From assembly GCA_026386835.1 (NCBI GenBank), contig JAPLMV010000183.1, positions 1 to 34,819 of the forward strand: 34,819 bases of DNA, in the 5' to 3' direction. The DNA is from Planctomycetota bacterium (GTDB taxonomy: Bacteria; Planctomycetota; Phycisphaerae; Sedimentisphaerales; Anaerobacaceae). The notes below the pieces were generated by a model. The model saw only the letters and a list, made by a program, of their open reading frames with translations, was not told the DNA's origin and did not search any database. Shown here one piece after another: positions 4,964 through 33,363 of the stretch; positions within the stretch are counted from its first letter, which is position 1; every line of letters begins with the position of its first letter. Both the position numbers and the translations under genes were made by a program.

Positions 4964-4982
4964 GGATAGAAGAGGTTAAAAT

Positions 4983-7169: not shown

Positions 7170-7231
7170 AATTAGCATATAGTTAAAACGTTAAGGCGAA
7201 AAATTTTATTTAAAAGGATAAGGATGAAGTT

Positions 7232-8569
7232 ATGGCGCTGACAGGATTGGATATATTTAAGCTTCTACCAAAAACCAACTGCAAGAAATGCGGCATGCCG
7301 ACATGTCTTGCTTTTGCGATGCAGCTTGCACAAAAAAAGGCCAAGCTGGATAAATGCCCGGACGTTTCGGAAGAGGCCAAGCAATTATTGGCGGCGGCGG
7401 CGGCACCGCCTATGCGGCTGGTAAAGTTCGGCTCCGGTGATAATCAGGTACAGGCAGGTCAGGAGACCGCCCTGTTCAGGCATGAGGATAAGTTTTATAA
7501 TCCGACTGTTCTTGCTGCGACAATTTCCGACAAGCTCACAGGCACAGAACTCCATAATCGCATCGAAGCCATAAATGCACTGAAGTTCGAGCGTATCGGC
7601 ACTAAAATTGGCGCAAAGGCTATAGCGGTCATCAACGAAAGCGGATTGGCTGACGCATTTGCTGCTGCAGCGGCTGCGGTAAAAAACCAGAGCAAGCTTG
7701 CTATAATCCTTGTTTCGGATTCTCCGCAGGCGATAGCCGCAGCGGTGAGTAAAACCGCAGGGGCAATGCCCTTAATTGCATCTGCAAAAATGGACACTGC
7801 TGAGGCAATTGCAAAAATCGCAAAAGAAAATAATTGCCCGGTTGTCGCAAAGGCAAACTCCATCGAGGCAATTTCCCAACTGAGCGAAAAAATCAAGGCA
7901 CAGGGCGTTGAGGATATTGTACTTACTCTCGACGGAATGAATCTGCGTGACCAGATGTTTAACCTGTCGAGGATGCGTGTTCTGTCCCTGAAGAAGGTAT
8001 TCAGACCCATGGGGTATCCTGTAATATCTTTTGTCAAAGGCACAAGCTGCGACCAGCAGGCGGCAATTGCGACAAGTCTTATCTGCAAGTATTCAAACAT
8101 TGTCGTGGTCGATACGGTTGAGCCTGGTGCGTGGCTGGCTATGCTGACCGCTGTGATGAATATCTACAGTGACCCGCAAAAGCCGGTGCAGGTCGAGCCG
8201 AAGATTTATCCTGTCGGGGAGCCGAATGAAAATTCCCCGCTTTTATTTACGACCAATTTCTCGCTTACCTATTACACCGTCGAATCGGATGTTGAAGCAA
8301 GCAGAGTGCCCAGCTATATTCTCGTGGTCGATACCGAAGGCACCAGTGTGCTGACGGCTTATTCTGGCGATAAACTCAACGAAAAAATAGTGGCTGAGGC
8401 GATGAAGAAATTCAACACCGAAAATCTCGTCAAACACCGCAAACTGATAATACCCGGCTATGTGGCGGTAATGAGCGGCAAGCTCGAAGAAGCAACCGGC
8501 TGGGAAATCATGGTCGGACCGAGAGAATCCTCGATGCTGCCGAAGTACCTGCAGGAAGTCTGGAAATAA
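7232..8569 (+). CDS. acsC: Corrinoid iron-sulfur protein large subunit (gamma)
   Basis: 445 aa with the N-terminal [4Fe-4S] motif CKKCGMPTCLAFAMQLA. Length and cluster position match AcsC. Confidence 0.9.
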   Translation: MALTGLDIFKLLPKTNCKKCGMPTCLAFAMQLAQKKAKLDKCPDVSEEAKQLLAAAAAPPMRLVKFGSGDNQVQAGQETALFRHEDKFYNPTVLAATISDKLTGTELHNRIEAINALKFERIGTKIGAKAIAVINESGLADAFAAAAAAVKNQSKLAIILVSDSPQAIAAAVSKTAGAMPLIASAKMDTAEAIAKIAKENNCPVVAKANSIEAISQLSEKIKAQGVEDIVLTLDGMNLRDQMFNLSRMRVLSLKKVFRPMGYPVISFVKGTSCDQQAAIATSLICKYSNIVVVDTVEPGAWLAMLTAVMNIYSDPQKPVQVEPKIYPVGEPNENSPLLFTTNFSLTYYTVESDVEASRVPSYILVVDTEGTSVLTAYSGDKLNEKIVAEAMKKFNTENLVKHRKLIIPGYVAVMSGKLEEATGWEIMVGPRESSMLPKYLQEVWK

Positions 8570-8578
8570 AAGTTAAAA

Positions 8579-10489: not shown

Positions 10490-10503
10490 AAAGAAAAACA
10501 AAT

Positions 10504-11247
10504 ATGGCAACAACAATTGCAGTAAGCGGAAAAGGTGGTTCCGGCAAAACAACAATATCGGCGATGATTATACGCTCGCTGATGAAAAAACCGTCCAAAG
10601 CTATACTTGCTGTTGATGCAGACCCAAATTCGTGCTTAGGTCTTGCGATGGGAGTTATGCCGGAAAGCACCATAGCGGAAATTCGCGAGCAGACACGCGC
10701 AAAACCGGCTGCCAATGAAGGCCTCGACAAGGTGCGATCGGTTGAGTATGGGATTCAGCAGGCAGTTACCGAAGCAAAGGGTTTTGATTTGCTCACGATG
10801 GGAAGGCCTGAAGGGCCAAGCTGTTACTGTGCGGTCAATAACCTCCTGCGGAAGTTTCTCGATGACCTCAGTTCGGCATACGAATTTGTAGTTATCGATA
10901 ACGAAGCGGGGATGGAGCATTTGTCTCGCAGAACAACCAATAATGTTGACCTGCTTTTGATAGTGGCAGAACCAGGCCCGGTTGGAAAAGTTACCGCCAA
11001 AAGGATTTTTGAGCTTGCCAGGAAGCTGCCGATAGAAGTCAGGCAAATCGGCATTATATGGAACAGGACCGAGCTTGCTGACAGCGTGGATGGAATAGAA
11101 ACTTTCGGATGTGTGCCTTATGACAAAGCTGTTTTAGATGCAGCGATGCAGGGAAAAACGGTGCTTGATTTGGATGTGAATACACCGGCATTTGCTGCGG
11201 TACGAAGTATACTTGAGAGCAAAATAGGAAAAGTAAATAGAAAATAG
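10504..11247 (+). CDS. acsF: Second CooC-family Ni-insertion ATPase (ACS accessory protein)
   Basis: ORF 10486..11247. It has the Walker A motif SGKGGSGKTT and the CxC motif PSCYCAV. The ATG at 10504 avoids overlap with the upstream stop codon. Confidence 0.85.
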   Translation: MATTIAVSGKGGSGKTTISAMIIRSLMKKPSKAILAVDADPNSCLGLAMGVMPESTIAEIREQTRAKPAANEGLDKVRSVEYGIQQAVTEAKGFDLLTMGRPEGPSCYCAVNNLLRKFLDDLSSAYEFVVIDNEAGMEHLSRRTTNNVDLLLIVAEPGPVGKVTAKRIFELARKLPIEVRQIGIIWNRTELADSVDGIETFGCVPYDKAVLDAAMQGKTVLDLDVNTPAFAAVRSILESKIGKVNRK

Positions 11248-11263
11248 CATTGGAGGATTTCAG

Positions 11264-12223
11264 ATGCCAGTTCCTGAAGTTGCAGACAGTTTCAGCGGTT
11301 CGGTAACGAAAATTACGCTTGGTGCGGCAAAAGCCGGCGGCGGCACGCGAACGTCGACGATAACCGTAGGCGGCTCGCGCAATGTCGTTTATGGCGGCGC
11401 ACCGGACAACGCCGGCGAAAGGCCTGTCATTGCTATGGATGTTCTGGATATATGTCCAGACGACTGGCCCGATGCCCTTGTCGAACCATATAAGGATGTG
11501 CTTGGTAATCCCGTCGCCTGGGCGAAAAAATGTGTCAATGAATTCGGCGCCGATTTAATCTGCATCAAATTCGACGGCATTCATCCAGATAAAGGCGACA
11601 AAGATGCTGAACAGGCGGTAAAAGTTACACAGGATGTATTAAAGGCGGTCGGTGTGCCGCTTGTGCTGTGGGGCAGCGGAAATGCCGACAAGGATAATCA
11701 GGTCATGCCAAAGGTTAGCCAGGCCGCAAAAGGTGAGAACTGCCTCGTCGGTACGGTGACACAAGATAATTACAAGGCACTGACAGCGATAGCCCTTGCC
11801 GACGGCCACTGTCTTATTACCCATGCACCTCTGGACATCAACATCGCAAAGCAGATTAATATCCTTGTTTCCGATATGGGTTTCCCGCTTGAAAAGATAG
11901 TAACATTCCAGGCGACAGGTGCTCTTGGATACGGGATGGAGTATGCCTATTCGATTCAGGAACGTCAGCGGCTGGCGGCACTTGGCGGCGATAAGATGAT
12001 GGCAATGCCGGTCATCTGCGACGTGGGTTATGAGGCATGGCGTGCAAAAGAGGCGAAATTAGTGGATGCCCCGGCCGGCTGGGGAACTGTTCAGGACAGG
12101 GGACCGATGTGGGAGGCAACCACCGCAATATGTCTTCTTCAGGCAGGTGCAAATATAATCAGAATGCGTCACCCAACAGCGGTGGCTGCGGTTAAGAATT
12201 TTATACAACAGATTTGGCAGTAA
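11264..12223 (+). CDS. acsD: Corrinoid iron-sulfur protein small subunit (delta)
   Basis: 319 aa with a GGAGG RBS. It is a TIM-barrel CFeSP small-subunit-like sequence placed between acsF and acsE. Confidence 0.9.
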   Translation: MPVPEVADSFSGSVTKITLGAAKAGGGTRTSTITVGGSRNVVYGGAPDNAGERPVIAMDVLDICPDDWPDALVEPYKDVLGNPVAWAKKCVNEFGADLICIKFDGIHPDKGDKDAEQAVKVTQDVLKAVGVPLVLWGSGNADKDNQVMPKVSQAAKGENCLVGTVTQDNYKALTAIALADGHCLITHAPLDINIAKQINILVSDMGFPLEKIVTFQATGALGYGMEYAYSIQERQRLAALGGDKMMAMPVICDVGYEAWRAKEAKLVDAPAGWGTVQDRGPMWEATTAICLLQAGANIIRMRHPTAVAAVKNFIQQIWQ

Positions 12224-12264
12224 AAACTATTGAAAGCTGGAGATTTGGAAAGGAAAGGTTTGAT

Positions 12265-12996
12265 ATGATACTGATAGGAGAAAGAATTAACGGAATGTTC
12301 ACGGACGTCAAGCAGGCCATTGCCGACAAGAATAAAAAGGTCATTCAGGACCTTGCCCAAAGACAAACGCAGGCTGGTGCAACATATCTTGACGTAAATG
12401 TCGGCACCGCAGCCGCTGACCAGGAAGGCACTATTCAATGGCTGGTCGAAACACTGCTTAATTCGGCACCTTTGAATAAAAAGACCGATGAGGAAATATT
12501 ATACAAGTATATGGAAATGGCGGAAAAGGCAGGCCCAAAGGCAAATCTTATTGCCCTTGCAATGGATAAAAACGGCGTGCCGCAGGACACTGATACCCGC
12601 GTGGCGATAGCCGCTGAAATTCTGCAAAAAGCACTGGAAAGAGGGTTTGAAACGCAGAGGCTGTTCATCGACCCGATTGTTCTGCCTGTCAAGGTGCCCA
12701 ACGCTCAGACCCAGCCGGCAATTATCCTTGCGGCGATGGACCAGATTCGGCTTTTGGCAGACCCGCCGCCGCATATGACGGTAGGTCTCTCGAACCTTTC
12801 GCAGGGTGCAGCCGAGAGAAGTCTCATTAACCGTGTATTCCTCGCGATGGCTATGTCGCACGGCCTGGACTCGGCAATTGCCGATGTCTTCGACGAAAAT
12901 CTAATGAATGCCGTTGCCACTTGCGATATGTTAATGAACAGGCAGATATATTCCGACAGTTTCCTTAAAGTATATGCAACGGCGAACAAAAAATAG
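12265..12996 (+). CDS. acsE: Methyltetrahydrofolate:corrinoid/iron-sulfur protein methyltransferase (apparently about 24 aa shorter than canonical AcsE)
   Basis: ORF 12214..12996, trimmed to the ATG at 12265 (MILIGERINGMF, the canonical AcsE N-terminus). It retains the pterin-binding barrel motifs YLDVNVG, LFIDPIV, GLSNLSQ and LDSAIAD. The expected LDS...MINS segment is not found. Confidence 0.85.
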   Translation: MILIGERINGMFTDVKQAIADKNKKVIQDLAQRQTQAGATYLDVNVGTAAADQEGTIQWLVETLLNSAPLNKKTDEEILYKYMEMAEKAGPKANLIALAMDKNGVPQDTDTRVAIAAEILQKALERGFETQRLFIDPIVLPVKVPNAQTQPAIILAAMDQIRLLADPPPHMTVGLSNLSQGAAERSLINRVFLAMAMSHGLDSAIADVFDENLMNAVATCDMLMNRQIYSDSFLKVYATANKK

Positions 12997-13043
12997 CATA
13001 TAGGAAAAACGCTGCACAAATTACCAATCACGAGTCTTGAAAT

Positions 13044-14807
13044 ATGAACCTTGACCCCACAAAACTAAAGGGCTGGGAAATTGCCGAGCTTGCCGAGCAG
13101 CAGATGAAACCCATCAGCATGGTTGCTGCTGAATTAGGTCTGCAGGAGCAGGAAATTATACCGATGGGCAGGGCCATCGCAAAAGTTGATTACCGAAAGG
13201 TAATGGAACGGCTGACCGGCGACCACCAGGCCAAATATATCGACGTAACCGCTATTACACCAACACCGTTGGGTGAAGGCAAAACAACAACCACTATTGG
13301 TCTTGTCCAGGGTCTCGGTAAACTCAAAAAGCGGGTTGTCGGAGCAATAAGGCAGTCTAGCAGCGGCCCGACATTCAACATAAAAGGTTCCGCAGCGGGA
13401 GGGGGACTTGCCCAGTGTATTCCCCAGACTCCTCTTGCGATAAGATTGACCGGCGACATCGACTGTGTAACAAATGCACATAATATTGCGATGACTGCTC
13501 TTACATCCCGAATGCAGCATGAACAAAATTACAGCGACCAGGACCTTGTAAAACGAGGTCTTAAACGTCTTGATATCGACCCCAGTCGCGTCCAGTTCAA
13601 ATGGCTAATGGATTTTTGCGCACAGGCACTGCGAAATATCACCATCGGCAAAGGCGGAAAGATGGACGGTGTGGAGATGGAATCGGGCTTTGCGATTTCC
13701 GCATCCAGCGAGGTTATGGCGATTCTGGCGGTCGCAAAGGACTTGAAAGATATGCGAGAGCGCATGGGCAGAATCGTTGTGGCTTACAATAAGAAAGGCA
13801 ATGAAATCACCACCGCAGACCTACAGGTCGATGGGGCGATGACGGCATGGATGGCCGATGCCCTCAATCCCAATCTCCTGCAGACCATCGAAGGTCAGCC
13901 GATATTCGTGCACGCAGGACCTTTCGCAAATATCGCCATAGGACAAAGTTCGATTGCCGCAGACCTGCTTGGCACTAAATTGGCCGACTACCACATTACC
14001 GAAAGCGGTTTTGCCGCCGATATCGGCTTCGAAAAATTTTGGAACTTAAAATGCAGAATATCGGGCCTCAAACCCAGCGCCGTCGTCATTGTGGCAACCG
14101 TCCGTGCGCTGAAGATGCACGGCGGCGGCCCAGCAGTAAAGCCGGGAATGCCCCTCGATGATGCGTATGTTAAGGAAAATCTCGGCCTTGTCGAAAAAGG
14201 CTGCGAAAATCTTATTGCTCATATCGATATAGTTAAAAAAAGCGGCGTAAAGCCGGTAGTGTGTATAAACAGCTTTTACACCGATACCCAAGCCGAAATC
14301 GAACTGGTGCGAAAAATCGCCGATAAGAACGGCGCTTTGCCTGCTGTCTCGGAGCACTGGCTAAAAGGCGGTGAAGGGGCACTCGAACTGGCGCAGGCGG
14401 TCATGTCGGCCTGCAATGAGAAAAATAATTTCAGATTCCTCTACGATTTGAATACACCGCTTAGAAAACGCATAGAACTGATTGCAAAAGAAGTTTACGG
14501 CGCTGACGGCGTAAGTTACAGCGATACGGCACTTGAAAAAGCCAAAGCCATCGAGGCCGACCCGCAGGCAAATCATCTCGGTACATGTATGGCCAAGACG
14601 CATCTTAGCCTGTCCGACGACCCGAATCTCAAGAATAGACCGAGGGGCTGGACTCTTGCCATTCGCGACATTTTAGTGTACAAAGGAGCCGGCCTTGTCG
14701 TCCCGATATCTGGAACAATTAAACTTATGCCAGGCACAAGTTCAGACCCGGCATTTCGCAGAATCGACGTGGACGTCAATACCGGAAAAGTACACGGACT
14801 GTTTTAA
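13044..14807 (+). CDS. fhs: Formate--tetrahydrofolate ligase
   Basis: 587 aa with the P-loop TPTPLGEGKTTT, plus GPFANIA, VATVRALKMHGG and a C-terminal GLF. Confidence 0.9.
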   Translation: MNLDPTKLKGWEIAELAEQQMKPISMVAAELGLQEQEIIPMGRAIAKVDYRKVMERLTGDHQAKYIDVTAITPTPLGEGKTTTTIGLVQGLGKLKKRVVGAIRQSSSGPTFNIKGSAAGGGLAQCIPQTPLAIRLTGDIDCVTNAHNIAMTALTSRMQHEQNYSDQDLVKRGLKRLDIDPSRVQFKWLMDFCAQALRNITIGKGGKMDGVEMESGFAISASSEVMAILAVAKDLKDMRERMGRIVVAYNKKGNEITTADLQVDGAMTAWMADALNPNLLQTIEGQPIFVHAGPFANIAIGQSSIAADLLGTKLADYHITESGFAADIGFEKFWNLKCRISGLKPSAVVIVATVRALKMHGGGPAVKPGMPLDDAYVKENLGLVEKGCENLIAHIDIVKKSGVKPVVCINSFYTDTQAEIELVRKIADKNGALPAVSEHWLKGGEGALELAQAVMSACNEKNNFRFLYDLNTPLRKRIELIAKEVYGADGVSYSDTALEKAKAIEADPQANHLGTCMAKTHLSLSDDPNLKNRPRGWTLAIRDILVYKGAGLVVPISGTIKLMPGTSSDPAFRRIDVDVNTGKVHGLF

Positions 14808-14824
14808 TTTGCCAGGAGCGATAG

Positions 14825-15706
14825 ATGACTGCACGGATTATAGATGGCGCAAAAGTCGCTGCCGACATGCGGGCCGAACTGAAAGAACACGTTGCAGAAC
14901 TTAAGAAACAAGGCATTGTGCCCGGCCTGGGTGTTATTCTTGTCGGACAGGACCCCGCTTCAAACTCTTATGTTACCGCCAAAGAACGCGCCTGCGCAGA
15001 GATTGGGATTTATTCCGACGACAACCGCCTGCCCGCACAGACATCTCAGAAAGATTTGATTGCCCTGATAAAGAAAATGAACGCCGACCCCAAAATCAAC
15101 GGCATCCTCGTGCAGCTTCCTTTACCCAAACACCTAATCGAGGACCAAGTCCTTATGACCATCAGCCCCGACAAGGATGTGGATGGTTTTCATCCGACAA
15201 ATGTCGGCAGAATGGTCGTGGGCGAAAAGGCGTTTTTGCCCTGTACGCCGCACGGCGTTATTCAATTACTGATTCGCAGCTCCGTCACCATCGATGGTTC
15301 ACATGTGGTAATTGTCGGCAGAAGCAACATTGTGGGCAAACCACTTGCGAATATGCTCATTCAAAAAAGTCCGACCGGCAACGCCACTGTAACTATTTGT
15401 CATACCCGCACAAAAAACCTTGCCTTCCATACAAAACAAGCTGACATAGTCATCGCTGCTGCGGGCAAACCCAACACTATTACTGCGGATATGATAAAGC
15501 CCGGTGCAGTGGTTATCGATGTGGGTGTCAATCGTATTGAGGATTCGACGAAAAAAAGCGGCTACCGTCTTGTGGGTGACGTTGATTTTGAAAATGTAAA
15601 GGAAAAGGCAAGCCTGATTACTCCTGTCCCCGGCGGCGTCGGACCAATGACCATAACTATGCTGCTTTACAACACCGTCGAATCTGCAAAACGGAACGCT
15701 GAGTAG
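14825..15706 (+). CDS. folD: Bifunctional methylene-THF dehydrogenase / methenyl-THF cyclohydrolase
   Basis: 293 aa with an AGGAG RBS and the motifs [27 protein letters not shown] and [10 protein letters not shown]. Confidence 0.95.
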
Positions 15707-15724
15707 TTTTTTGCGCATAATAAT

Positions 15725-15751
15725 GGCCGTGAGTGTCTGTGCCCCACGGCC
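15725..15751. terminator. GC-rich hairpin between convergent folD and the 95-aa ORF (possible terminator)
   Basis: GGCCGTG (15725-15731) pairs with CACGGCC (15745-15751) around a 13-nt loop. There is no clean U-tract, so the call is tentative. Confidence 0.3.
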
Positions 15752-15800
15752 AACAAGGAGTAGTATTGTGTCAACAATCAAGAAACAGAAAGTTTATAGG

Positions 15801-16088
15801 TCAGCCTTTTCTGGCTACTAATTTTTCTTTGCCTTGCCTCTCATCTAACTTCTGCTTGACAAATTCGTACACACTACAGGCAGTATCCTTGGCCACGACC
15901 CCCAATCGGCTGACCGCAACATAAAAGTTTTGTTTGAATTCCCCCGGCTTTACCTCCGACAATGCATCGCTTTTTACAAAAGTGTTTGCCCCCGCATGCA
16001 AAGCAGGATTGGCATGTGCCGTCGTCAAACAGTAAACCGCAGTTGCGAAACCAGCAAAGTAAACAACCATCAGAAATAGGATTTTCAC
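15801..16088 (-). CDS. Small hypothetical secreted or membrane-anchored protein
   Basis: 95-aa ORF with a GTG start preceded by AAGGGGGG. The N-terminus is hydrophobic and signal-like (MKILFLMVVYFAGFATAVYC). No family recognised. Confidence 0.5.
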   Translation of the reverse strand: MKILFLMVVYFAGFATAVYCLTTAHANPALHAGANTFVKSDALSEVKPGEFKQNFYVAVSRLGVVAKDTACSVYEFVKQKLDERQGKEKLVARKG

Positions 16089-20867: not shown

Positions 20868-21080
20868 TCACTTGGCAATTTTGAGACGATGCCTGTCTAA
20901 AAGAATACAGGTGCATATACTATTTTTATCAGACAAAATTGCCGCCTTCGAATTAAAGGCCATAAGAAGATATGGGTCTTTTGTATAACGGGCTTTTGCA
21001 GCAGGCACACCAACAGGCTGAATATCGTACCTGGCACCTGCCACAAGGTTTTTCGTATAAGCCGTGTTTATCGTGTCCAT
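20868..21080 (-). CDS. Hypothetical small protein downstream of the anti-sigma gene
   Basis: ORF 20868..21140. The internal ATG at 21080 is preceded by AGGAAAA and avoids overlap with the upstream gene. It lies between the anti-sigma stop and the terminator. No family recognised. Confidence 0.3.
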   Translation of the reverse strand: MDTINTAYTKNLVAGARYDIQPVGVPAAKARYTKDPYLLMAFNSKAAILSDKNSICTCILLDRHRLKIAK

Positions 21081-21108: not shown

Positions 21109-22434
21109 CTATTTTTGTTGCGGTATCTCGGACGAATCACCTATACTTAAATCTCCGTAAATCACACGATAGGTACCTGTATCATCGGATTTCCACCAGC
21201 AAATCGGCTCGTTTGTTTCGCCAAGCCGAATGCCGTCTCCCGCGTAACCCCACTCGCCATAGATTCTTTGCTGCTGGGCAAATACAAGAGCCTTTAGTAT
21301 CTTATTCAGTACAGGCATAGCCAGTTCAAGTTCATCCACTGGGTTACCGCCTTTGGCGAATTTTTCCACCAGTATCGGCTTAACCATGTTTGGGTCGACG
21401 AGGTCTTTAATTGCCGATGGGAAGAATCCATCCGACATTTCCGACCATAAGGCAAGTACTTCAATCAGGCCTTGCTCGTCAGGATTAGACACATCAAGCT
21501 GTTCTTGCTCCACAGCGTAATCAGGCGGCGGCTCGATGCTGAAAAGCGACGGGTCAAGGTTGGCATCCCATACAAAATCGCTTATAACCATAATCATCTT
21601 TTTTACCATACCGCCACCGCCGTAAAACGAGATGCCTTTTGTGATTATCATTTCTCCTTCTTTTACCTCTTCGAAATCATCTGAACGTAAGGCCATCTCC
21701 GGCGATATAATCTCTTTATCCGGATTCGGGATAATTTCCCTTTCTACCCGAACCGGCAGGTTGGTTTTGGGGTCAACCCATACGGTGGTTTTTTCATATT
21801 CCTGCTGAAAGAGGAATACATCGACTGCCTGACCATCGAGCACCTGCTGCCTCGTGAATTGTCCCGTTCTGTCTTTTAGTTTGGTAACCCAATTGAGATA
21901 ATTGAAAGGCTGCTTTCTTTGTTTCATCCCTATTCGTTGAGTTATTGTTGCCTTTTTCTCGTTAGGATACAATTGCAGATCTCTGTTCAGAGCCAAATCG
22001 GTGATTGAAATTGAGTTATTAAAAGTTGTGCGAATATGACCCGGCTCCATTACCATCTCTTCCACTGTAGTGGGAGGATTGTCCTCAGTTTTGATGGTTT
22101 CCCTGTAAGTTACCGTCCTGGCATTATAAATCTGTTCCATAACATCTGCCCAGACGACAGCCGTTCCATCAATCCGTACGCCGAATTGATGCAATCCGAA
22201 AAGTATTCCAATAATTATTACCGCAGCCGCTGCAAACCTTAACATCTTAGTTTTCATAATTGACCCCCATATTCTTACTATTTTTATTTGGTTCGAGATT
22301 TCTTTCTTTTCTGACATACTGACAAAAACCCTGCGGACCCGCTCCATAGCCCGTGCGGTTGACTCCGGGCTGGGCTTGATTTGTGAAATCAACTCTAATC
22401 GGCGCAGAATTTCCTGTTCGTCAGTCCTCGGCAT
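21109..22434 (-). CDS. Putative anti-sigma factor: single-pass membrane protein with a large extracytoplasmic domain
   Basis: ORF 21109..22473. The ATG at 22434 overlaps the sigma gene stop by 14 nt, suggesting translational coupling. It has a short cytoplasmic N-terminus, one TM segment (MLRFAAAAVIIIGILFGL) and about 360 aa outside the membrane. The call rests on position and topology only. Confidence 0.55.
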   Translation of the reverse strand: MPRTDEQEILRRLELISQIKPSPESTARAMERVRRVFVSMSEKKEISNQIKIVRIWGSIMKTKMLRFAAAAVIIIGILFGLHQFGVRIDGTAVVWADVMEQIYNARTVTYRETIKTEDNPPTTVEEMVMEPGHIRTTFNNSISITDLALNRDLQLYPNEKKATITQRIGMKQRKQPFNYLNWVTKLKDRTGQFTRQQVLDGQAVDVFLFQQEYEKTTVWVDPKTNLPVRVEREIIPNPDKEIISPEMALRSDDFEEVKEGEMIITKGISFYGGGGMVKKMIMVISDFVWDANLDPSLFSIEPPPDYAVEQEQLDVSNPDEQGLIEVLALWSEMSDGFFPSAIKDLVDPNMVKPILVEKFAKGGNPVDELELAMPVLNKILKALVFAQQQRIYGEWGYAGDGIRLGETNEPICWWKSDDTGTYRVIYGDLSIGDSSEIPQQK

Positions 22435-22969
22435 CACGTCCCCCTTTTTTTGAATAACGTAATTCTTTGTCACTTAGTAAATATCGAATGTGCATCAGCG
22501 CCTTAAAACACAAGGCACATACCTGATTTGGCGTCTTGCCCATTTCGCCGGCTATATATTCATAGCTCTGCTGCTGGATATATCGCATTACAAATGCCTC
22601 ACGGGATGCGCCCCGAAACTGCGCTATGGCGCCAAGCACCTCTTCTATTTCTTCGTTTTGGGCGAATTTGCTCGACGGGGAAATCAAATCTGAAACCGGC
22701 TCAGGAACATCGTCCAGCCGGCAGGCACTTTTATCTCTGGCCTTGCGCCAGTCGAAAGCCATGTTGACTGCTGTCCTGTGTGCATAAGCAGCCAAGTCTT
22801 TGACCTTATCAAGACCTTTGAAATTGGCAAGTTTTACAAACAATTCCTGCATTAGTTCCTCGGCGATATCTTCGCGCAGCACCAACCGTGCCAGCAACGT
22901 GTGCAACTCCGTCTCTGAACGCTCAAAAACCTCTAAAAGTCGCTGCAAACCACCCTGCAACACAAACAC
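22421..22969 (-). CDS. ECF (group 4) RNA polymerase sigma factor
   Basis: 182 aa. The region 2 pattern is DIAEELMQELFVKL ... AYAHRTAVNMAFDWRK. Region 4 is AFVMRYIQQQSYEYIAGEMGKTPNQVCALCFKAL. The true start is probably GTG or TTG 2-3 codons inside the ORF, downstream of the AGGAG. Confidence 0.85.
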   Translation of the reverse strand: MFVLQGGLQRLLEVFERSETELHTLLARLVLREDIAEELMQELFVKLANFKGLDKVKDLAAYAHRTAVNMAFDWRKARDKSACRLDDVPEPVSDLISPSSKFAQNEEIEEVLGAIAQFRGASREAFVMRYIQQQSYEYIAGEMGKTPNQVCALCFKALMHIRYLLSDKELRYSKKGGRDAED

Positions 22970-23217
22970 TCCTGACTAATTCACTTCTATTAGTAAGACT
23001 GTTGACTACGTCCAAACACAACCGGAATTTTGCCTTTTTTTAAAAATTTTTCAATATTTTATAAAAAACGGCCAAAACGTGCTAAAAAGGAGGGTGGGAT
23101 TAGCTCTACGGAGTAGATATTTTTTAAAAATGCTATGCTATGGTAAAAATAGCATACGGCGTTGTTGGACGGCGAAAGGGTTGGATGGTTAAACGGTAAA
23201 ACGGTAAAGAGAAAAAT

Positions 23218-23289
23218 GGTAGGGTAATGGTTCGACTGGTTCGACAAGCTCACCACAGGCTCACTCACCATAAAAGACCCTACCCTACC
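23218..23289. repeat. REP-like hairpin element
   Basis: GGTAGGGTA (23218-23226) pairs with TACCCTACC (23281-23289). The arms enclose a tandem GGTTCGAC GGTTCGAC and CTCACCACAGGCTCACTCACC. Tandem AACGGTAAA repeats lie just upstream (23190-23208). Confidence 0.5.
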
Positions 23290-23308
23290 AGACTCCGTCG
23301 AAATTTCT

Positions 23309-24901
23309 TTATGAAAGCATTATATTCTCCATATAGTCCAGCGCATGGGGATTTTTCTCAAGTACCGTGCAGTAGTCGACTAACAATTTATGTGCCCGAA
23401 AGCGATGCCCTTGGCAGGCGGTTTTTTTGAGAAGTCCGGTCGGCTTTTCTCCATCGGATATGTTAGACCAGCATCCCAATTTGCATGTATGCAGACACCA
23501 GCAATACCGGCACTGGTCTTTGGTAAAGTCCACCCAGTCGCTCAGTAACTGCTTTATTTTAGCTATATCCAAGCCATTCTCGACGTCGCCGATTTTCATA
23601 TATTCACTCTCGGGAACTCGCTCACAGGGCCAGTAGTCGCCGTCGATGCTCAGGTACGTCCGCTGCGTGCCAGGGACACACGTCGACAGCGAGCAGAAAC
23701 GTTCGGGAAGAATTGTGTGATTATGGATATGGCACTGATAAATCTGGAATCTTTTATGGAAAAAAAGCCAGTCCTGCTCGTTCATCTCCCTTTGCAGCCG
23801 GTATGCCGTGGCCGATACATCTGAATTAATCCTGCCCGCAGCGAGATTGTTGATAAATCTTTTATACAGCAAATCGAAGCCGGTTATTTTTCCAGTTGGA
23901 CTAATCTTGCTTCCGACCTGGTCCACAAAGGCCGCCTTTACACCGATATGCCTGTCGAATAAATCGCAGGAAACTAAGAATTTATCCAGAATATCGATAT
24001 CTAACGGCGGCGCCATTACCATATTGAAGCTTAGTTTGTCGTTTGTCCTATATTGCGGGTACTTGTCGAGAAATGCCCTTATGTTGGATGTTACCTTTTG
24101 CCAGGTGGGCAGGCCGTTTTTGTAGCGGCGATACCGGTCGTGGATTTCTCTGGGACCATCTATGCTGACTACAATGCTGAAGTTTTCTGAGGCAAGAAAA
24201 TCCGCTGCATCGCCGGTTAATAATGAGCCGTTTACGGTAATTGAAAAGATAATGTCTTTGCCCCTGTCGCTTTTCTTGACATAGCCGACACATTTTTTGA
24301 TAAGAGGCAGGTTTAACAGTGGCTCACCTCCATAGAAACCTATCGACCTGATTTTGGCAGAGCCGCTTTGCTGCATATAGCAGTCGATACCTTTTTTTGC
24401 AATGCTCCATTTCATTTTTCGTCTCGAAAGGGCATGCCGTCCGGCGTATTGGCCGCTGTAAACACAATAGCAGCATCGAAAATTGCAGTCCTCGGTAACA
24501 AGTAAAATAAGTATTTTGCGTTTATTGTTCAGCTTTTGCCTTATATCATCCTCGGTCATAGTCAGCTCAACCTGCGGGCGATTCGAGAGAAACAAATTTT
24601 TATCCCGCTGAGCAATTGCAATTTCGTCACACGCCGATGAGATTTCAGCCATACTGAATTGCCCGCGATACTTAGAAAAGATTTCTTCTTTGCCAAGTAT
24701 TCCGAAATCGCCGATAATTTCCCACACAACGGGAGTAACCCGCACTATTTTCATCGTATTAACGTCATAGATGTACTTGTTTTCCCTCGTTTCAAACCGG
24801 TGTACAAACGCCGTCGCAGGATTTTCCACAACATCGGAAGTTTTTTCTTCGATGTCAGAGGATAAGGGCATATTTCCAGAACACTTTCCAATCTCAGTCA
24901 T
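23309..24901 (-). CDS. Radical SAM/SPASM-domain peptide maturase with an N-terminal RRE-like extension
   Basis: 530 aa with an AAGGAAA RBS. The CX3CX2C motif CNFRCCYC is encoded at 24464-24487. The C-terminus has a full SPASM signature (CVPGTQRTYLSIDGDYWPC = CX12GX4C, then CRYCWCLHTCKLGC = CX2CX5CX3C, then a later Cys). About 110 aa precede the rSAM core (FVHRFETRENKYIYDVNTMKIVRVTPVVWEII...), as in RiPP recognition elements. Confidence 0.9.
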   Translation of the reverse strand: MTEIGKCSGNMPLSSDIEEKTSDVVENPATAFVHRFETRENKYIYDVNTMKIVRVTPVVWEIIGDFGILGKEEIFSKYRGQFSMAEISSACDEIAIAQRDKNLFLSNRPQVELTMTEDDIRQKLNNKRKILILLVTEDCNFRCCYCVYSGQYAGRHALSRRKMKWSIAKKGIDCYMQQSGSAKIRSIGFYGGEPLLNLPLIKKCVGYVKKSDRGKDIIFSITVNGSLLTGDAADFLASENFSIVVSIDGPREIHDRYRRYKNGLPTWQKVTSNIRAFLDKYPQYRTNDKLSFNMVMAPPLDIDILDKFLVSCDLFDRHIGVKAAFVDQVGSKISPTGKITGFDLLYKRFINNLAAGRINSDVSATAYRLQREMNEQDWLFFHKRFQIYQCHIHNHTILPERFCSLSTCVPGTQRTYLSIDGDYWPCERVPESEYMKIGDVENGLDIAKIKQLLSDWVDFTKDQCRYCWCLHTCKLGCWSNISDGEKPTGLLKKTACQGHRFRAHKLLVDYCTVLEKNPHALDYMENIMLS

Positions 24902-24949
24902 AATAGTTTCCTTAACAGTAAAAAAAGTTGATATATTTTGTACGGTATA

Positions 24950-24964
24950 TAAGACCTGGTCTTA
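24950..24964. promoter_or_regulatory. Perfect 7-1-7 palindrome upstream of the rSAM gene (candidate operator)
   Basis: TAAGACC-T-GGTCTTA, 49-63 nt upstream of the rSAM ATG (24901). Confidence 0.35.
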
Positions 24965-25159
24965 CAGATTTGGCTTTTCTGCTCTATATCTTTGTCATTC
25001 TAAAAAAAAGGCGTGTCTGGTTACGGCCTGACTTGTATAAAACAATACTTTACTTTAGTGCTCAATAGGTGCACCTAAAGGATTCGGGTTGCAGCAATCA
25101 GGCACGCCCTTGCAACCTTTGGCAAAGAAATAAGGTTGTTAGAGTACCTCAGGGAGGCC

Positions 25160-25339
25160 TCATCCACCTTTTACGCCTCCGAAGGTACTTGCTATTGCAC
25201 TGCTGGAGTTGGAAGCGAAATTGGTGTTAACGCACGCTTCTGTGCAACCGCAGGTACACGTACATCCGCACGAGCATCCTCCTCCGTCAGGCAGGTTCTC
25301 CATACTTGGAGTTTCATGGAAATTAGTTACATCAATCAT
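25160..25339 (-). CDS. Cysteine-ladder small peptide, candidate RiPP precursor (59 aa, absent from the ORF track)
   Basis: Hand translation of the minus strand gives AAGGAG (25352-25347), a 7-nt spacer, an ATG at 25339 and a TGA at 25162-25160. The peptide is MIDVTNFHETPSMENLPDGGGCSCGCTCTCGCTEACVNTNFASNSSSAIASTFGGVKGG. It lies 53 nt after the upstream gene and 258 nt before the rSAM/SPASM gene on the same strand. Confidence 0.75.
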   Translation of the reverse strand: MIDVTNFHETPSMENLPDGGGCSCGCTCTCGCTEACVNTNFASNSSSAIASTFGGVKGG

Positions 25340-25392
25340 TTTAAATCTCCTTAAAAAAAGTTAATAATTCTTTCGTAGAAAAAACGGTTTAA

Positions 25393-26475
25393 CTACTTAA
25401 GACCCGGGTTTTCGCTATATGTAACAATTTCAGTTATGTCGCCGGCTAATTCCCCGCGTAATAACGCATTTCGCTGTTGAGGACCAAGAAACGTCGGCAG
25501 GCGTCTGCTGTATCTGTACTCGTCTGGGTATTTATTCGAAGGAACCAGATAAACCTGAAAGCCGAACTTATATTTCTTATCCAGACTGTTTTTGAAGTTG
25601 GCCATGGTCTCGCTGTATCGTCCCCAGCCGCCTATGGAGGCATTATCCCGCAGCCATTGGATAACTTCCTTTGCTGCGGCAGTATTATTCCGCTGGAGAA
25701 GAAACGCCAAGTCGCAGCCGCACAAAAAATCATTCATTGTGGGATTTCGTCCGCTGTTAATCTGGCTTATGATTTGCTCAAACTGTCTGGCTCGCAGGTC
25801 CAGAAGCGTTTTTTTAATCTCACCGTTTGGAACTGTTTTATTTGTTTCCTTGTCAAGCTTAACTATCAGATTGGCGGCCTGTATGGCCTCAATCAATTCA
25901 TTTGTTATGGTCAAATTATCCGGATTGCGCTGGTGGCCGTATTCTAGCAGAATCCTTGCCATATACGCATCTCGATACGCAGTACGCGAAAGGTCTCCTC
26001 CTGCCAGCCAGAAATTTCCCAGCAAGTTATGAGCAAGCTCGACAAGTTTCTCATCCGAAAGGTTCGTGATGTCTGTTTTTGCCGTAAGTTCTTTCAGTAA
26101 TTGCTCACGGACCTGAGAATAATCAGGCCAGGTCGCCATAACCTCATCCTGGGTCTTCCATATCCGCTCTGCGGCTGCTGAATTTATCAGCAGGTCTATC
26201 TGCTGATCATCAAAAGGCTTAGGCAGTTCCGCTTGCGAGATTGTATCTTTAACCGGCAACTGGTTTTTGTGGTCTTCCACAACAGCTATGTGTTCAACCT
26301 TTGCTTTGTGGCTATCCGTCAAACACACGTTGTTAGCATTCTTTATGCCGATTAACGGCGTTTTTTTAATATCGGGCAATTTTTTACCCTTGCCCTGCCA
26401 TATGAAAAATACCGCAGTTGGTACAAAGACCAGGATAACCATAAGCAGCAAACCTGTTTTAGTCGTAATTTTCAT
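25393..26475 (-). CDS. Hypothetical membrane-anchored protein (N-terminal TM, helical extracytoplasmic domain)
   Basis: 360-aa ORF with a GGAAA RBS. It has an N-terminal anchor (GLLLMVILVFVPTAVFFIW). No catalytic motif or family recognised. It lies immediately upstream of the Cys-ladder ORF. Confidence 0.7.
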   Translation of the reverse strand: MKITTKTGLLLMVILVFVPTAVFFIWQGKGKKLPDIKKTPLIGIKNANNVCLTDSHKAKVEHIAVVEDHKNQLPVKDTISQAELPKPFDDQQIDLLINSAAAERIWKTQDEVMATWPDYSQVREQLLKELTAKTDITNLSDEKLVELAHNLLGNFWLAGGDLSRTAYRDAYMARILLEYGHQRNPDNLTITNELIEAIQAANLIVKLDKETNKTVPNGEIKKTLLDLRARQFEQIISQINSGRNPTMNDFLCGCDLAFLLQRNNTAAAKEVIQWLRDNASIGGWGRYSETMANFKNSLDKKYKFGFQVYLVPSNKYPDEYRYSRRLPTFLGPQQRNALLRGELAGDITEIVTYSENPGLK

Positions 26476-26821
26476 TCGCCGTATTTCCTTTCACATTTAC
26501 CGACACAACTCATCAGCCAATGTATAGACTGCGTGCTTTGTATACCATTAAACGTTTGGTAAATGTTTTAGCGGGTGTGAAGGGAAATGAAATCTTGAAA
26601 AACCGGTATTGCGGGATGTTAGTGTAAAATGAACATGAACGGAAAAAGCAGATTTTGGCTCACAGGTAAAGAGATGAAAATGGCGATGATGAGAATACTT
26701 TGGTATTTCATTATTCTCGATATTTATTTGTCAGAACCAGTTTTCCCCGCCATGGCTTGACATTAGCCGTTTTTTTATTCTGCCAGGCTCTCCGGCAGTA
26801 ACCTCTCCCTTGTTGATATGG

Positions 26822-27253
26822 CTATTTGGCAATCTTCTCGTACCGACTTTTTTCGCTTTCAGCCGGCGAGATCGTCCTTATGGAAACAATACCCTTCAGC
26901 CCAAGTACATTGGCAACGGTGGTTTGAAAAAACTCATCGGTGGTATCTTCAGTTAGAACAGCACAAACCCCTGAACTTCGAGCGGCAATTTCCTGTGCCT
27001 GGTCGCCGGCTTTTATGAAAACTATCGTTGGAATTTCAGGCTTCACGGCCTTTAATCTCTTCAGGAATAAGCCGTTCTTCATATCATCCAGGTCCCACTT
27101 GCTGATAACGCTGTCAACTCTTTCATTTTTCAGCGAACGGGCGGCTTCACTGCCGGACGACATTGCTATCAAACGAAGAGGCAGTTCCTGCAAAGCCTCA
27201 TTTTTGTCGCCCAGACCAACCGTTAGCACATTTGCCTGAACTAACACAATCAT
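26822..27253 (-). CDS. Stand-alone receiver-like (CheY-fold) protein with degenerate phospho-acceptor site
   Basis: 143 aa with a GAGGAAA RBS. VDSVISKWDLDDMKNGLFLKRLK aligns with CheY [23 protein letters not shown], placing Lys where Asp57 should be. The N-terminal acidic pair is replaced by QAN. Confidence 0.6.
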   Translation of the reverse strand: MIVLVQANVLTVGLGDKNEALQELPLRLIAMSSGSEAARSLKNERVDSVISKWDLDDMKNGLFLKRLKAVKPEIPTIVFIKAGDQAQEIAARSSGVCAVLTEDTTDEFFQTTVANVLGLKGIVSIRTISPAESEKSRYEKIAK

Positions 27254-27351
27254 CTTATTTCCTCAAACGTAGTCTGTTAAATTGACTATAGTACCTTCCA
27301 TTGTTTTCGTGCAGTTACTTCAACTATCGAACATCTATTGGCATCGCGGGT

Positions 27352-27484
27352 AAAGCCACGTCTAATCTCGTGCTGGGTCTGTCGTTCAACCTTGAGTCGA
27401 CAACAGCAAACCCAGCGAAGAAGAGGAGAGAGAGAGAGTTTTTTGCCTCTTTATAAATTCACGGTTAAAACCGTGCTGGCTTTC
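27352..27484. repeat. Conserved 133-nt non-coding element, copy A (possible structured sRNA)
   Basis: Near-identical to 27656-27788. It contains the complementary pairs AAAGCC/GGCTTT (termini), GCTGGGT/ACCCAGC and CACGGTT/AACCGTG, plus an (AG)6 tract followed by T6. Confidence 0.8.
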
Positions 27485-27655
27485 GTGCCGGGCCTGTTAA
27501 CTCGTTTTGGTCAACCAAGCCCAGCTTGGGGGAAAGAAAACTCCTCGCGAGCATATATATAATCACGGTCCAATACTGACCATGCCTGCTCTCAATTTAG
27601 CATTATCAAAGAGCGAACTATCGAAAAAATACCAACCACTATTTTAATCGCAGCA

Positions 27656-27788
27656 AAAGCCGCGTCTAATCTCGTGCTGGGCCTGTCATTCAACTTTGAG
27701 TCAACAACAGCAAACCCAGCGAAGAAAAGGAGAGAGAGAGAGAGAGTTTTTTGCCTATAAATTCACGGTTAAAACCGTGCTGGCTTTC
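27656..27788. repeat. Conserved 133-nt non-coding element, copy B
   Basis: Same architecture as copy A, 304 bp downstream. It differs by a few point substitutions, (AG)8 instead of (AG)6, and a 4-nt deletion after the T6GCCT. Confidence 0.8.
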
Positions 27789-28181
27789 AAATATCAAACT
27801 TATCAAAGAACTTCTTTTTCATCACCATCAATCGAAGCCTTTCTTTCCTGTTGCACTAATACATATTAGCGAAGGCTGTGCCAAAGTTGTGCCAGAAAAT
27901 AAATTTTTTTTAACTCCTTATTCCGGCAATACTTACGTATCCCAAATTTTTTGCCGGCATCGCAGACTATTTTTGAGTGGATTGACCATTATAGCCGCAA
28001 GAAAGGGTATATTATTCCAGCAACGTTTTGTGTTTGCTGGCGTTAGCAATCAATCGACCATTTTGGCCTGGGGTGACCAAACCGGTCGCTTTTGAATTCC
28101 TGTCACGTTTTTTCTCTTTCGGTATCTATATATTATGAGGTTATAATATAAAATGAACAATAAGTATGGAGCAGTTCAGAA

Positions 28182-31742: not shown

Positions 31743-33363
31743 TTACTCTTTCTCTTGGCTGTCTAACTGATGCAGGTGCTTTTGCAGGCGAGGGTTCAGT
31801 TCATCCAATTGCTTTTGGTCAACTTCGCTCGGTGCATCGGTCAAAAGGCACTGACCTCGCTGAGTCTTTGGGAACGCAATGACATCTCTGATGTTATCGG
31901 TGCCTGTCAAAAGCATAATCATTCTGTCAAGGCCCAGGGCAATTCCGCCGTGCGGCGGAGCGCCGTATTCTAGCGCCTTTAAGAAGAACCCGAACTGCTC
32001 GTGTGCCTGCTTCTTTGAAATGCTCGTCCTGGTTCCACTCAAACAGCGGGAAATCCACAATCCAGACAAATTCGAATTGGGCTGGGTCATAAAGATTCAG
32101 GTCTTTGCCCAGTTTGCATCTTAATGGTGCAAGGGCCTTATTGGCTGCCTTTTCGGTATCAGCAATAATCAGAATCAGGTCGTCGTCCTTTGCGACGAAG
32201 CGTTCAATTATCTGTTGCTGCTGCTCCTGGCTGAAAAACTTGGTGATGCTGCTGTTAAGTCCTGACTTACCGTTTTCGTTTTTGACCTTAAACCAGGCTA
32301 GGCCTTTGGCGCCGTAGTCGCCGACAAAATCGGTGAGGGTTTTTTCAATATCGCTTCTCGAATATTTTCCGCCGCCCGGAGCGCATAGCCCTTTTACGAT
32401 GCCGCCTTTTTCAACAGCCGATGTAAATACCTTAAACGTGCTCTGCTTTGCGATATCCGATATGTCCCTTAGCTTCATATCGAAACGCAGGTCAGGCCGG
32501 TCGATTCCATAATCGTCCGCCGCCTGCTTATATGTCATTCGGCGAATCGGCGTTTTGACTTCGATGCCGAGTATTTCCTTCCAGATTTTTGCAATCAATA
32601 CTTCGTGGAGGCCTATGACGTCGTTGGTGTCGATAAAACTCATCTCAACATCTATCTGCGTGAATTCCGCCTGCCTGTCCGCCCGCGGGTCTTCATCGCG
32701 GAAACAACGCACAATCTGAAAATATTTATCGACGCCGCTGACCATAAGAATCTGCTTAAAAAGCTGCGGCGACTGTGGAAGCGCATAAAAACAGTTACGC
32801 ATAAGCCTGCTCGGCACGAGAAAATCCCTCGCGCCTTCGGGGGTGCTTTTTGCGAGCATCGGCGTCTCTATTTCCCAGAAGCCCAGCTTGTCGTAATAAT
32901 CGCGGGCAAGCTTTGTTACGCGATGGCGGATTTTCAGCCTCTGCTGCATTTGGGGTCTGCGAAGGTCGATATATCGGCTGGCAAGACGAGTCTCCTCGGC
33001 GGTCTTGTCGGCATTGTCGATTTCAAAGGGGGGTGTCTTCGCAGTGTTGAGTATCTCCATCTGCTCGACATTCACCTCGATTTGACCAGTGGGGAGTTTG
33101 GGGTTCTCAAGACCCTGGCCTCTTGGCCCAACCACACCCTGGGCTGCTATTACCCATTCGGTACGAACCGTTCGTGCCAGCTTGTGGGCATCAGGGCATT
33201 TTTCAGGATTGAAGACAAGCTGTGTAAGACCCTCGCGGTCGCGAAGGTCGAAAAATACCAGATTGCCGTGGTCGCGGTAGGAATGTACCCATCCCGCTAA
33301 AATTACTTTTTTGCCGGCGTCTTCGAGCCGAAGCTGGCCGCAATTATGTGTGCGTTTCAACAT
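31743..33363 (-). pseudogene. aspS: Aspartyl-tRNA synthetase with an internal out-of-frame deletion (two overlapping ORF fragments)
   Basis: ORF 31927..33363 encodes the OB-fold, motif 1 and motif 2 (FRDEDPRADRQAEFTQIDVEMSF) up to [11 protein letters not shown], then runs into nonsense. ORF 31743..32090 is homologous only from [38 protein letters not shown] (motif 3). The HHPFT and GGGSIRIH segment expected between them is absent. Confidence 0.85.

Follow-up and report, generated by a model that had tools for sequence, protein, structure and literature searches.

A 34,819-nt stretch of contig JAPLMV010000183.1 from a Planctomycetota bacterium (assembly GCA_026386835.1; referred to as the window, meaning the whole of the DNA analysed) carries at positions 25160-25339 of its minus strand an open reading frame (ORF) of 59 codons plus stop, with an ATG start, whose product is MIDVTNFHETPSMENLPDGGGCSCGCTCTCGCTEACVNTNFASNSSSAIASTFGGVKGG. 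We find that this ORF is a real, conserved gene under selection on its leader and its cysteines, and that it forms a conserved pair with the gene directly downstream, which encodes a radical S-adenosylmethionine (SAM)/SPASM enzyme. We consider it likely that the ORF encodes the precursor of a peptide that is made on ribosomes and modified after translation (a RiPP), in which the adjacent enzyme introduces intramolecular thioethers at a ladder of closely spaced cysteines, with a nested hairpin as the likeliest arrangement of the links.

A conserved precursor-type gene and its radical SAM/SPASM partner

The predicted peptide consists of a leader (residues 1-21, nt 25277-25339), a cysteine ladder (residues 22-36, nt 25232-25276) and a tail (residues 37-59, nt 25163-25231), all encoded on the minus strand. 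Six ladder cysteines, C22-C32, alternate strictly as (CX)5C and the seventh, C36, comes after three residues in the segment C-T-E-A-C, so the strict alternation that an earlier note, made from the DNA sequence alone, had ascribed to the whole block holds for the first six only. A Shine-Dalgarno sequence, AAGGAG (25347-25352, minus strand), precedes the ATG, with a 7-nt spacer, ATTTAAA, between them. The ORF, its peptide and this ribosome-binding site (RBS) are where the earlier note had placed them; its description of the ORF as uncalled is true under the 60-amino acid cut-off that it used, but homologues are called in JGI, NCBI and ENA records as "hypothetical protein". Given a six-frame cysteine frequency of 0.036 in the window, the number of (C.)5C runs expected by chance is 1.5e-4; one was observed, and none arose in 200 shuffles. 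Neither the ladder nor the leader motif was found a second time within the window.

A word-indexed search returned three called homologues (P0001-P0003) with 70-83% identity to the window peptide, and a HMMER scan of 1.84 billion (1.84e9) representatives gave 13 matches at E<=1e-3, each one a leader-plus-ladder peptide. Across the word-indexed, alignment-based and HMMER searches the family amounts to about 18 distinct peptides in metagenomes, P0124-P0136 among them, and peptide profile searches contributed few members beyond those found earlier. These peptides share the N-terminal consensus M-[IV]-[DE]-[VF]-[TSKQ]-x-[FG] (MIDVTNF in the window), a leader of 18-24 residues that ends in small residues (G/A), a ladder of 6-12 cysteines that is usually closed by C-x-x(-x)-C, and a cysteine-poor tail. 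Leader and ladder cysteines are kept among homologues and the X positions and tail vary; some members alternate the ladder cysteines with Tyr, Trp or Phe, and the ladder spans 11-25 positions. A C-T-[DE]-A-C and xSN[SF]AS segment is conserved as well. The homologue search that the earlier note had called for thus recovered a family with invariant cysteines, and the leader, cysteine block and cysteine-poor tail that it had described are conserved across it.

The sense frame is open in 11 of 11 loci, in which both other sense frames carry stops, and in the more distant loci stops interrupt all antisense frames. We therefore regard the antisense ORF at 25136-25354 (plus strand, 72 amino acids, TTG start), which overlaps the precursor gene and was already listed as spurious, as an accident of the close clade and reject it as a gene. 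Between loci the cysteine codons alternate between TGC and TGT while the cysteines themselves stay invariant, and the length differences among the closest homologues, at 59-62 amino acids, come from indels of whole residues that fall in the leader, in the ladder or where the tail starts; the loss of a conserved frame in relatives, which the earlier note had named as fatal to its proposal, did not occur. A five-locus DNA alignment further shows conservation of the start codon and the RBS, and high conservation of about 55 nt of intergenic DNA upstream. Using Nei-Gojobori counts, we obtained ratios of non-synonymous to synonymous change per site (pN/pS) for the leader of 0.2-0.5 when the window, L001 and L004, which are the closest loci, are compared, and of mostly 0.3-0.7 for the remaining pairs. 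Constraint is thus found in the leader but not in the tail, where pN/pS is about 1 or above, that is, neutral to diversifying: window and L008 tails differ by 6.8 non-synonymous and 0.2 synonymous changes, and those of L001 and L004 by 25.5 and 3.5, respectively. As judged from the sequences, this combination, in which the leader is conserved, the reactive scaffold invariant and the rest hypervariable, is what precursors of RiPPs or bacteriocins usually show.

Orthologues of the downstream enzyme were retrieved with their contigs at 38-86% identity, and a ladder peptide adjoins the enzyme in all fetched loci but one, L179, whose contig ends just past the radical SAM gene. Viewed from the peptide, homologues stand beside a radical SAM orthologue in L001-L007, L169-L178, L009 and L180, with L008 the exception. 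The precursor gene mostly sits directly upstream of that for the enzyme; L009 and L180, with a leader that reads IEDTLFG, have it directly downstream. The informative loci came from exact-protein look-ups; pattern scans of genomes and metagenomes with the radical SAM alignment yielded mostly distant SPASM enzymes among the matches listed. Together, the homologues and the conserved pairing bear out the proposal of a genuine precursor-type gene coupled to the downstream radical SAM enzyme, and the small ORFs beside enzyme homologues that the earlier note had suggested looking for are there.

The enzyme gene (23309-24901, minus strand) encodes a 530-amino acid radical SAM/SPASM peptide maturase that matches PF04055 at 49 bits (cut-off 29.5) and Fer4_12 (PF13353). 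Its CxxxCxxC SAM-cluster motif, C139-x3-C143-x2-C146, is invariant in 28 homologues, and the seven-cysteine SPASM motif (Cx9-15Gx4C ... Cx2Cx5Cx3C ... C) is likewise complete and invariant as C408-x12-G421-x4-C426, C464-x2-C467-x5-C473-x3-C477 and C496, in a region that aligns to the SPASM domain of CteB. CteB is also the best sequence match in the PDB (1e-36), and enzyme residues 29-131 align to CteB 3-99, its RiPP recognition element (RRE). Consistent with the winged helix of three strands plus three helices that defines an RRE, an AlphaFold2 model built from the 28 homologues (predicted local distance difference test, pLDDT, 87.9) has helices after three strands (33-37, 42-46 and 51-55), and Foldseek matches the model best to CteB (5WHY/5WGG) over its full length (about 490-500 columns, E 1e-21). 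SAM motif, SPASM motif and RRE, which define the class of RRE-dependent radical SAM/SPASM RiPP maturases, are thus all present.

Among NCBIfam models, the enzyme scores best against CcpM (TIGR04068; 328.9 bits against a cut-off of 500, residues 32-515 aligned) and second best, again over its full length, against RumMC (NF035951; 241.8 against 720), followed by lachnocin (197 against 550), nif11 (174 against 518.7), SCIFF (TIGR03974; 165 against 425), PapB (NF047865; 164 against 340) and QhpD (TIGR03906; 150 against 453). These nearest families are all maturases of cysteine thioethers or of cysteine-rich peptides; none of the subtilosin, thurincin or thuricin maturase models is in the best 25 of the 56 NCBIfam matches. 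Among the nearest relatives defined by experiment are a sactisynthase (RumMC) as well as ranthisynthases (CteB, PapB and QhpD), and position 1 of the six-residue catalytic site proximity profile is Val in the window enzyme and Phe in CteB.

Proposed cross-linking and competing explanations

From this pairing we infer that the peptide is the substrate of the enzyme and that the product carries thioethers. By analogy with the RRE-containing SPASM maturases CteB, PapB, RumMC and AlbA, the leader of about 21 residues (MI[DE]VTxF with a small G/A end) would be bound by the RRE-like N-terminal domain of the enzyme, which would then use a 5'-deoxyadenosyl radical and two auxiliary Fe-S clusters to join the thiols of C22-C36 to carbon in intramolecular thioethers. 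In the likeliest topology, the ladder cysteines would be donors and the tail would supply the acceptor carbons, so that a nested hairpin or zipper results. The modified peptide would subsequently shed its leader and be exported, possibly by an ATP-binding cassette (ABC) exporter such as the one that follows the radical SAM gene in relatives and is lacking in the window. Expression is probably tied to the adjacent pair of extracytoplasmic function (ECF) sigma and anti-sigma factors, and a 360-amino acid membrane-anchored protein encoded upstream may be an obligate partner acting as protease, scaffold or immunity protein. Leader removal, export, ECF-sigma control and bioactivity are suggested by gene content and by the precedent of SacP23.

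Several features favor the hairpin. The layout of an N-terminal cysteine donor block followed by a cysteine-poor segment of matching length holds in 18 members, and tail length follows ladder size: members with 6-7 cysteines have tails of 20-31 residues, while in three strongly diverged 12-cysteine sequences the tail is exactly 44 residues long. Within the close 7-cysteine clade the tail keeps 23-24 residues as its sequence drifts, and this holding of length under drift is seen in both clades. The hairpin is favored as well because StsA shows CxCxC donors zipped to residues two apart (PMC10288494). Since the identity of the acceptors appears unconstrained, abstraction at the backbone C-alpha fits better than side-chain-specific ranthionines. 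The likeness to hairpin sactipeptides drawn in the earlier note is thus compatible with the donor block and acceptor tail, in that tail length scales with cysteine number, the tail is free to vary in sequence and the enzyme is similar to RumMC and CteB; the length scaling behind it comes from about two clades.

Other observations count against the hairpin proposal or the wider scheme. The relation between ladder and tail length rests on about two independent clades (Spearman p = 0.05), and the tail, whose rate of change is neutral or higher, could therefore be a dispensable spacer and not an acceptor region. The conserved C-T-[DE]-A-C plus xSN[SF]AS segment would also permit local PapB-like or NxxC-like rings. 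Every curated equivalog cut-off is missed, so the reaction of the enzyme is not transferable by annotation, and for the products of the nearest named family, CcpM/CLI_3235, as for those of the window family, the chemistry would be assigned by analogy. No exporter or protease adjoining the cluster was found in the window, L001 or L004. Finally, L008 (ENA ERZ27247850 k141_666500, a 2.3-kb metagenome contig whose positions 232-735 were compared with window 21632-26570) retains the precursor gene together with its RBS and the promoter-proximal segment upstream, but has neither the 360-amino acid nor the radical SAM gene. The former is cleanly deleted, at a junction that joins GAGTTGTGT to AGTTAAACCG, and about 130 nt of unrelated sequence takes the place of the latter, followed by the ECF sigma gene. 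Lacking both genes, L008 has a peptide that is either orphaned or served in trans.

The most serious competitor, although we think it unlikely, keeps the same RiPP system and makes the cross-links or other cysteine modifications local, either within the ladder or in the C-T-[DE]-A-C and xSN[SF]AS segments (as PapB-like CX3[DE] links or an NxxC-like Cys-Asn ranthionine), leaving the distal tail as a variable appendage or one that is trimmed. Homologues do repeatedly show a C-x-x-x-[DE] register (C30..E34) and, 2-5 residues past the last cysteine, an Asn; the distal tail sequence is unconstrained, and the enzyme scores against the ranthisynthases PapB, SCIFF and QhpD and has CteB as its best structural match. 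However, a single acidic residue is available for 6-12 cysteines, side-chain-specific acceptors would be expected to be conserved, and tail length stays constant despite sequence divergence, at 23-24 residues in the close clade and at 44 in the 12-cysteine clade.

We give considerably less weight to the metallothionein-like alternative raised in the earlier note, in which an unmodified, disulfide-bonded or metal-loaded cysteine-rich peptide would buffer metal or redox state with no need for the radical SAM enzyme. CxC motifs bind soft metals, and in L008 the peptide gene is intact, with the same upstream region, despite a clean loss of the 360-amino acid and radical SAM genes. But L008 is one metagenome contig of 2.3 kb, and the absent genes may sit elsewhere in that genome; RRE-dependent RiPPs typically have a conserved N-terminal leader such as this one, the peptide stands beside the radical SAM gene in all other fetched loci down to 38% enzyme identity (range 38-86%), relatives carry exporter genes, and the peptide has no metallothionein or other Pfam match at E<=0.01.

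More improbable still is a linear azole peptide similar to streptolysin S or listeriolysin S, whose thiazoles and oxazoles would be made by a YcaO cyclodehydratase with its gene at another site. Listeriolysin S cores have a composition like that of the core here, CSCGCTCTCGCT, and one homologue (P0125) weakly matches NF033222 (E 1e-3; 18.9 bits, cut-off 33), but the window peptide itself gives no NF033222 match and the invariant partner is a radical SAM/SPASM enzyme. No YcaO-, SagB- or SagC-type gene was found among the cluster genes and those window ORFs of at least 150 amino acids that are not nested antisense within a larger gene, nor is there a YcaO in the Pfam lists of the syntenic loci. 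A spurious ORF in non-coding DNA, which its shortness, the antisense overlap and a whole-peptide pN/pS near 1 in the closest pair might suggest, is effectively refuted by the frame that stays open in 11 of 11 loci with stops in the others, cysteines invariant despite codon changes, the conserved RBS and start, HMMER matches confined to leader-plus-ladder peptides and the low chance expectation of such a ladder.

A bolder extension of the thioether-hairpin proposal, which we put forward tentatively, is that the planctomycete peptides with a MIDVTNF leader and a (CX)n ladder may constitute a distinct RiPP family, either with a rigid zipper of nested thioethers that joins every second residue over 11-25 positions to a return strand evolving freely, or with a cysteine chemistry new to SPASM enzymes, dependent on the 360-amino acid partner and wired to ECF signalling. 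In number of bridges, a zipper of this kind would exceed RumC and thurincin H, which have four, and freyrasin with its six short rings. The 12-cysteine members with aromatic X positions would be an extreme test of a single SPASM enzyme installing many close cross-links, and a hypervariable tail on an invariant cysteine scaffold suggests a natural diversification platform.

Neighboring genes, locus variants and host

The 360-amino acid protein encoded at 25393-26475 (minus strand) has an N-terminal transmembrane helix and a predicted all-alpha body; it was delineated by synteny and by an alignment with 40 invariant residues. A partner of 360-400 amino acids is encoded directly upstream of the precursor gene or genes in 7 loci (L001, L004, L169, L171, L172, L174 and L177), is truncated in L178 and is not at that position in L009 and L180. 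No relative was found in Pfam, NCBIfam or the PDB, profile-against-PDB and Pfam scans included; comparison with TIGR04066 gave an hhalign probability of 0.1%, which marks the two as unrelated, and a single-sequence AlphaFold2 model (pLDDT 42) was too poor for a fold search. By these sequence comparisons the partner is a novel protein family, and one with a clear genetic handle.

Downstream of the enzyme gene lies a regulatory module on the minus strand. An ECF-type sigma factor (22421-22969), syntenic in L001, L004, L169, L172, L174 and L177, is followed by a putative anti-sigma factor of 454 amino acids with a transmembrane segment (21109-22473), whose gene overlaps the sigma gene stop; in relatives the equivalent position after the sigma gene is taken by proteins of 191-440 amino acids or by FecR-domain proteins. 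The module also includes a highly conserved 70-amino acid protein (20868-21080; 86% mean column identity, motif NSICTCILL). Proteins of 70-71 amino acids follow every ECF sigma/anti-sigma pair (L001 9347-9562; L004 9453-9668 and 11782-11997, in two sigma/anti-sigma/70-amino acid triplets; L169 13233-13445), and a family search placed them in no known family. On the other side of the cluster, a 143-amino acid receiver-domain-like protein (26822-27253, minus strand) is a conserved upstream neighbor. The exporter of relatives is of the MsbA/HlyB type, lacks a peptidase domain and lies directly after the radical SAM gene in L169, L172, L174 and L177. Beyond the receiver-like gene, a direct repeat (27330-27438 and 27634-27742; 87% identity, 304-nt spacing, with a (CT)n tract) lies in an ORF-free region (27335-28089) whose conservation in L001, L004 and L169 still reaches about 90%. 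Near this region, relatives carry 3-4 PEP-CTERM-type genes that are lacking in the window.

Between the peptide and enzyme genes, positions 25002-25111 (minus strand) hold a structured intergenic element, a candidate attenuator or terminator, in which two hairpins sit inside a long-range stem (GGGCGUGYCUG / CAGACAYGCCC), with U8 after the stem. Of its 34 predicted pairs, 2 are kept through changes on both sides among 4 sequences, which is limited covariation, and the element is better conserved than the peptide tail. Rfam gave no match to it or elsewhere in the window, and a simple terminator scan gave no minus-strand terminator after the peptide gene. The element could act as an attenuator that sets the ratio of precursor to enzyme.

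The locus also exists in expanded forms. L174-L176 encode two precursors with 12 ladder cysteines apiece (for example CYCKCHCSCHCSCYCNCSCVCNNEC), and L177 (10001-16745) encodes two precursors with the core CCECxNCxCxSC followed by four tandem radical SAM/SPASM paralogues of 535-553 amino acids, a multi-enzyme version of the system.

Named relatives of the locus are metagenome-assembled genomes (MAGs) of Phycisphaerae or Planctomycetota (P0052, P0089 and L009), and the sigma-factor subfamilies agree with this origin. Within positions 1-16000 the window encodes a complete-looking Wood-Ljungdahl set: carbon monoxide dehydrogenase (CODH)/acetyl-CoA synthase, both subunits of the corrinoid iron-sulfur protein, RACo, a methyltransferase-like pterin-binding protein, formyltetrahydrofolate synthetase and FolD. 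These genes indicate that the host is an anaerobe, which suits radical SAM chemistry. In the same window, the gene for the CODH catalytic subunit (Prismane family; 2973-4963, plus strand) is split into a 500-amino acid ORF (profile positions 1-389) and a 163-amino acid ORF (407-512) that overlap at 4472-4475. The aspartyl-tRNA synthetase gene (31743-33363, minus strand) is similarly split into overlapping ORFs of 478 and 115 amino acids, with the break near 32022-32029; its counterpart in L169 is intact at 602 amino acids, and the split reflects either a frameshift or an assembly indel. Since the CODH split is another apparent frameshift, indel errors introduced during assembly are suspected.

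Relation to known systems

The nearest named system is that of CcpM and its CLI_3235-type precursors. A true Ccp system on a human-gut contig (L104) combines a radical SAM enzyme that matches TIGR04068 at 500.3 bits with TIGR04066, TIGR04069 and a subtilisin-like protease. Its precursor, AYACSCNCWCACTCNNC followed by a polar tail (written out at greater length, it starts MKLGKKNAMETGTFMAYACSCNCWCACTCNNCQSIGSANGKQVASNTQ...), matches TIGR04065, the CLI_3235 family bacteriocin precursor model, at 29.9 bits against a cut-off of 26. Like the window peptide, it has a (CX)n ladder, a CxxC end and a cysteine-free tail rich in Ser, Thr, Asn and Gln, and CcpM is the best-scoring family for the window enzyme over its full length. 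The differences are nevertheless extensive. The window enzyme is 30% identical to true CcpM and reaches 329 bits against the 500-bit cut-off; neither the window peptide nor five homologues match TIGR04065, which spans the leader and the ladder start, at E<=10; and the leader reads MIDVTNF where that of the L104 precursor is a Lys-rich MKK... sequence. The Ccp accessory genes TIGR04066, TIGR04069 (related to acyl carrier protein) and the subtilisin-like protease are absent from the window and the syntenic loci, the window having the unrelated 360-amino acid membrane protein instead, and Ccp hosts are Firmicutes whereas the window host belongs to Planctomycetota. Because every Ccp criterion examined failed, we regard the window system as a distant cousin of the Ccp/RumMC group and not as a member. 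The sole experimental work on an expressed CLI_3235/TIGR04068 member concerns SacP23 of Paenibacillus polymyxa, an active bacteriocin against methicillin-resistant Staphylococcus aureus whose cross-links were left unresolved (PMC10731318). Its cluster also holds an ECF sigma factor and an ABC transporter (PMC10731318), the former as in the window region and the latter as in relatives of the window.

Cysteine ladders of the CxC type occur beside other SPASM enzymes as well, in collected loci from Anaerolineales, Planctomycetia and further metagenome contigs, and include precursors of the TIGR04135 (FibroRumin, Campylobacter MAG) and TIGR04149 (GG-leader type) families. In one Planctomycetia MAG (L025 5347-6653), three small ORFs downstream of a distant SPASM enzyme (26% identity) open with the ladder MCGCSCQCSC... 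and end in LKFLxNAIAELVIVD; by their sequences they look like ladder peptides of a follower type, with C-terminal recognition. The core is thus not foreign to described families, although the earlier note had not recognized it: ladder, terminal CxxC and polar tail are shared with TIGR04065 precursors of CcpM/TIGR04068, and the window family sits among several curated cysteine-ladder precursor families.

Thurincin H and subtilosin A pair N-terminal cysteine donors with a C-terminal acceptor half in a nested hairpin, and differ from the window peptide in their CxxC or CxxxC spacing and 3-4 bridges. CxC spacing, which the earlier note had taken to be tighter than that of such hairpins, is itself proven in a nested hairpin sactipeptide: StsA of Streptomyces sparsogenes has the core CxCxCx4GxGxG with bridges Cys2-Gly15, Cys4-Gly13 and Cys6-Gly11 (PMC10288494). 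StsA/StsB and BlaA/BlaB resemble the window system in their alternating CxCxC donors and return-strand acceptors two residues apart (PMC10288494). StsA, however, has three cysteines, a GxGxG acceptor motif and an MftC-like enzyme, whereas the window family has 6-12 cysteines, no conserved acceptor motif and a CcpM/RumMC/CteB-like enzyme. RumMC, a proven S-C-alpha thioether former that makes hairpin-type bridges (PMC8188230), is the second-best family of the window enzyme (242 bits, full length), but that score is well under the 720-bit cut-off and RumC has 4 cysteines and not a CxC ladder. The SCIFF system CteA-CteB, the freyrasin system PapA-PapB and QhpD share leader-dependent cysteine thioether chemistry with what is proposed here, and CteB, with its RRE and SPASM domains, is the closest structure; they differ in linking cysteines to specific side-chain carbons of conserved Thr, Asp or Glu in short rings. 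In the window family the SCIFF, PapB and QhpD cut-offs are missed and a single conserved acidic residue accompanies 6-12 cysteines. Outside the radical SAM RiPPs, neither an NF033222 match of at least 33 bits to the window peptide nor a YcaO gene in the locus was found, as listeriolysin S and other thiazole/oxazole-modified microcins would show, and in place of a metallothionein family match there is a conserved leader next to a maturase gene.

Overall, the claims of an unrecognized core and an unprecedented spacing were overstated, and the broad reading of a radical SAM-modified, cysteine-rich RiPP is right. We found no paper describing the planctomycete leader-plus-ladder family, and in the literature no characterized radical SAM-modified peptide from Planctomycetota. 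The window adds to the map of radical SAM RiPPs a rare, phylum-specific and well-defined precursor/maturase family (about 18 peptides in 1.84 billion representatives) from anaerobic Planctomycetota. Its cores and those of the CLI_3235/CcpM group mirror each other, so solving the chemistry of either would inform the other. Compared with all of these systems, that of the window is a divergent, Planctomycetota-type cysteine-rich radical SAM RiPP with its own leader, a novel 360-amino acid partner and, in some members, long ladders.

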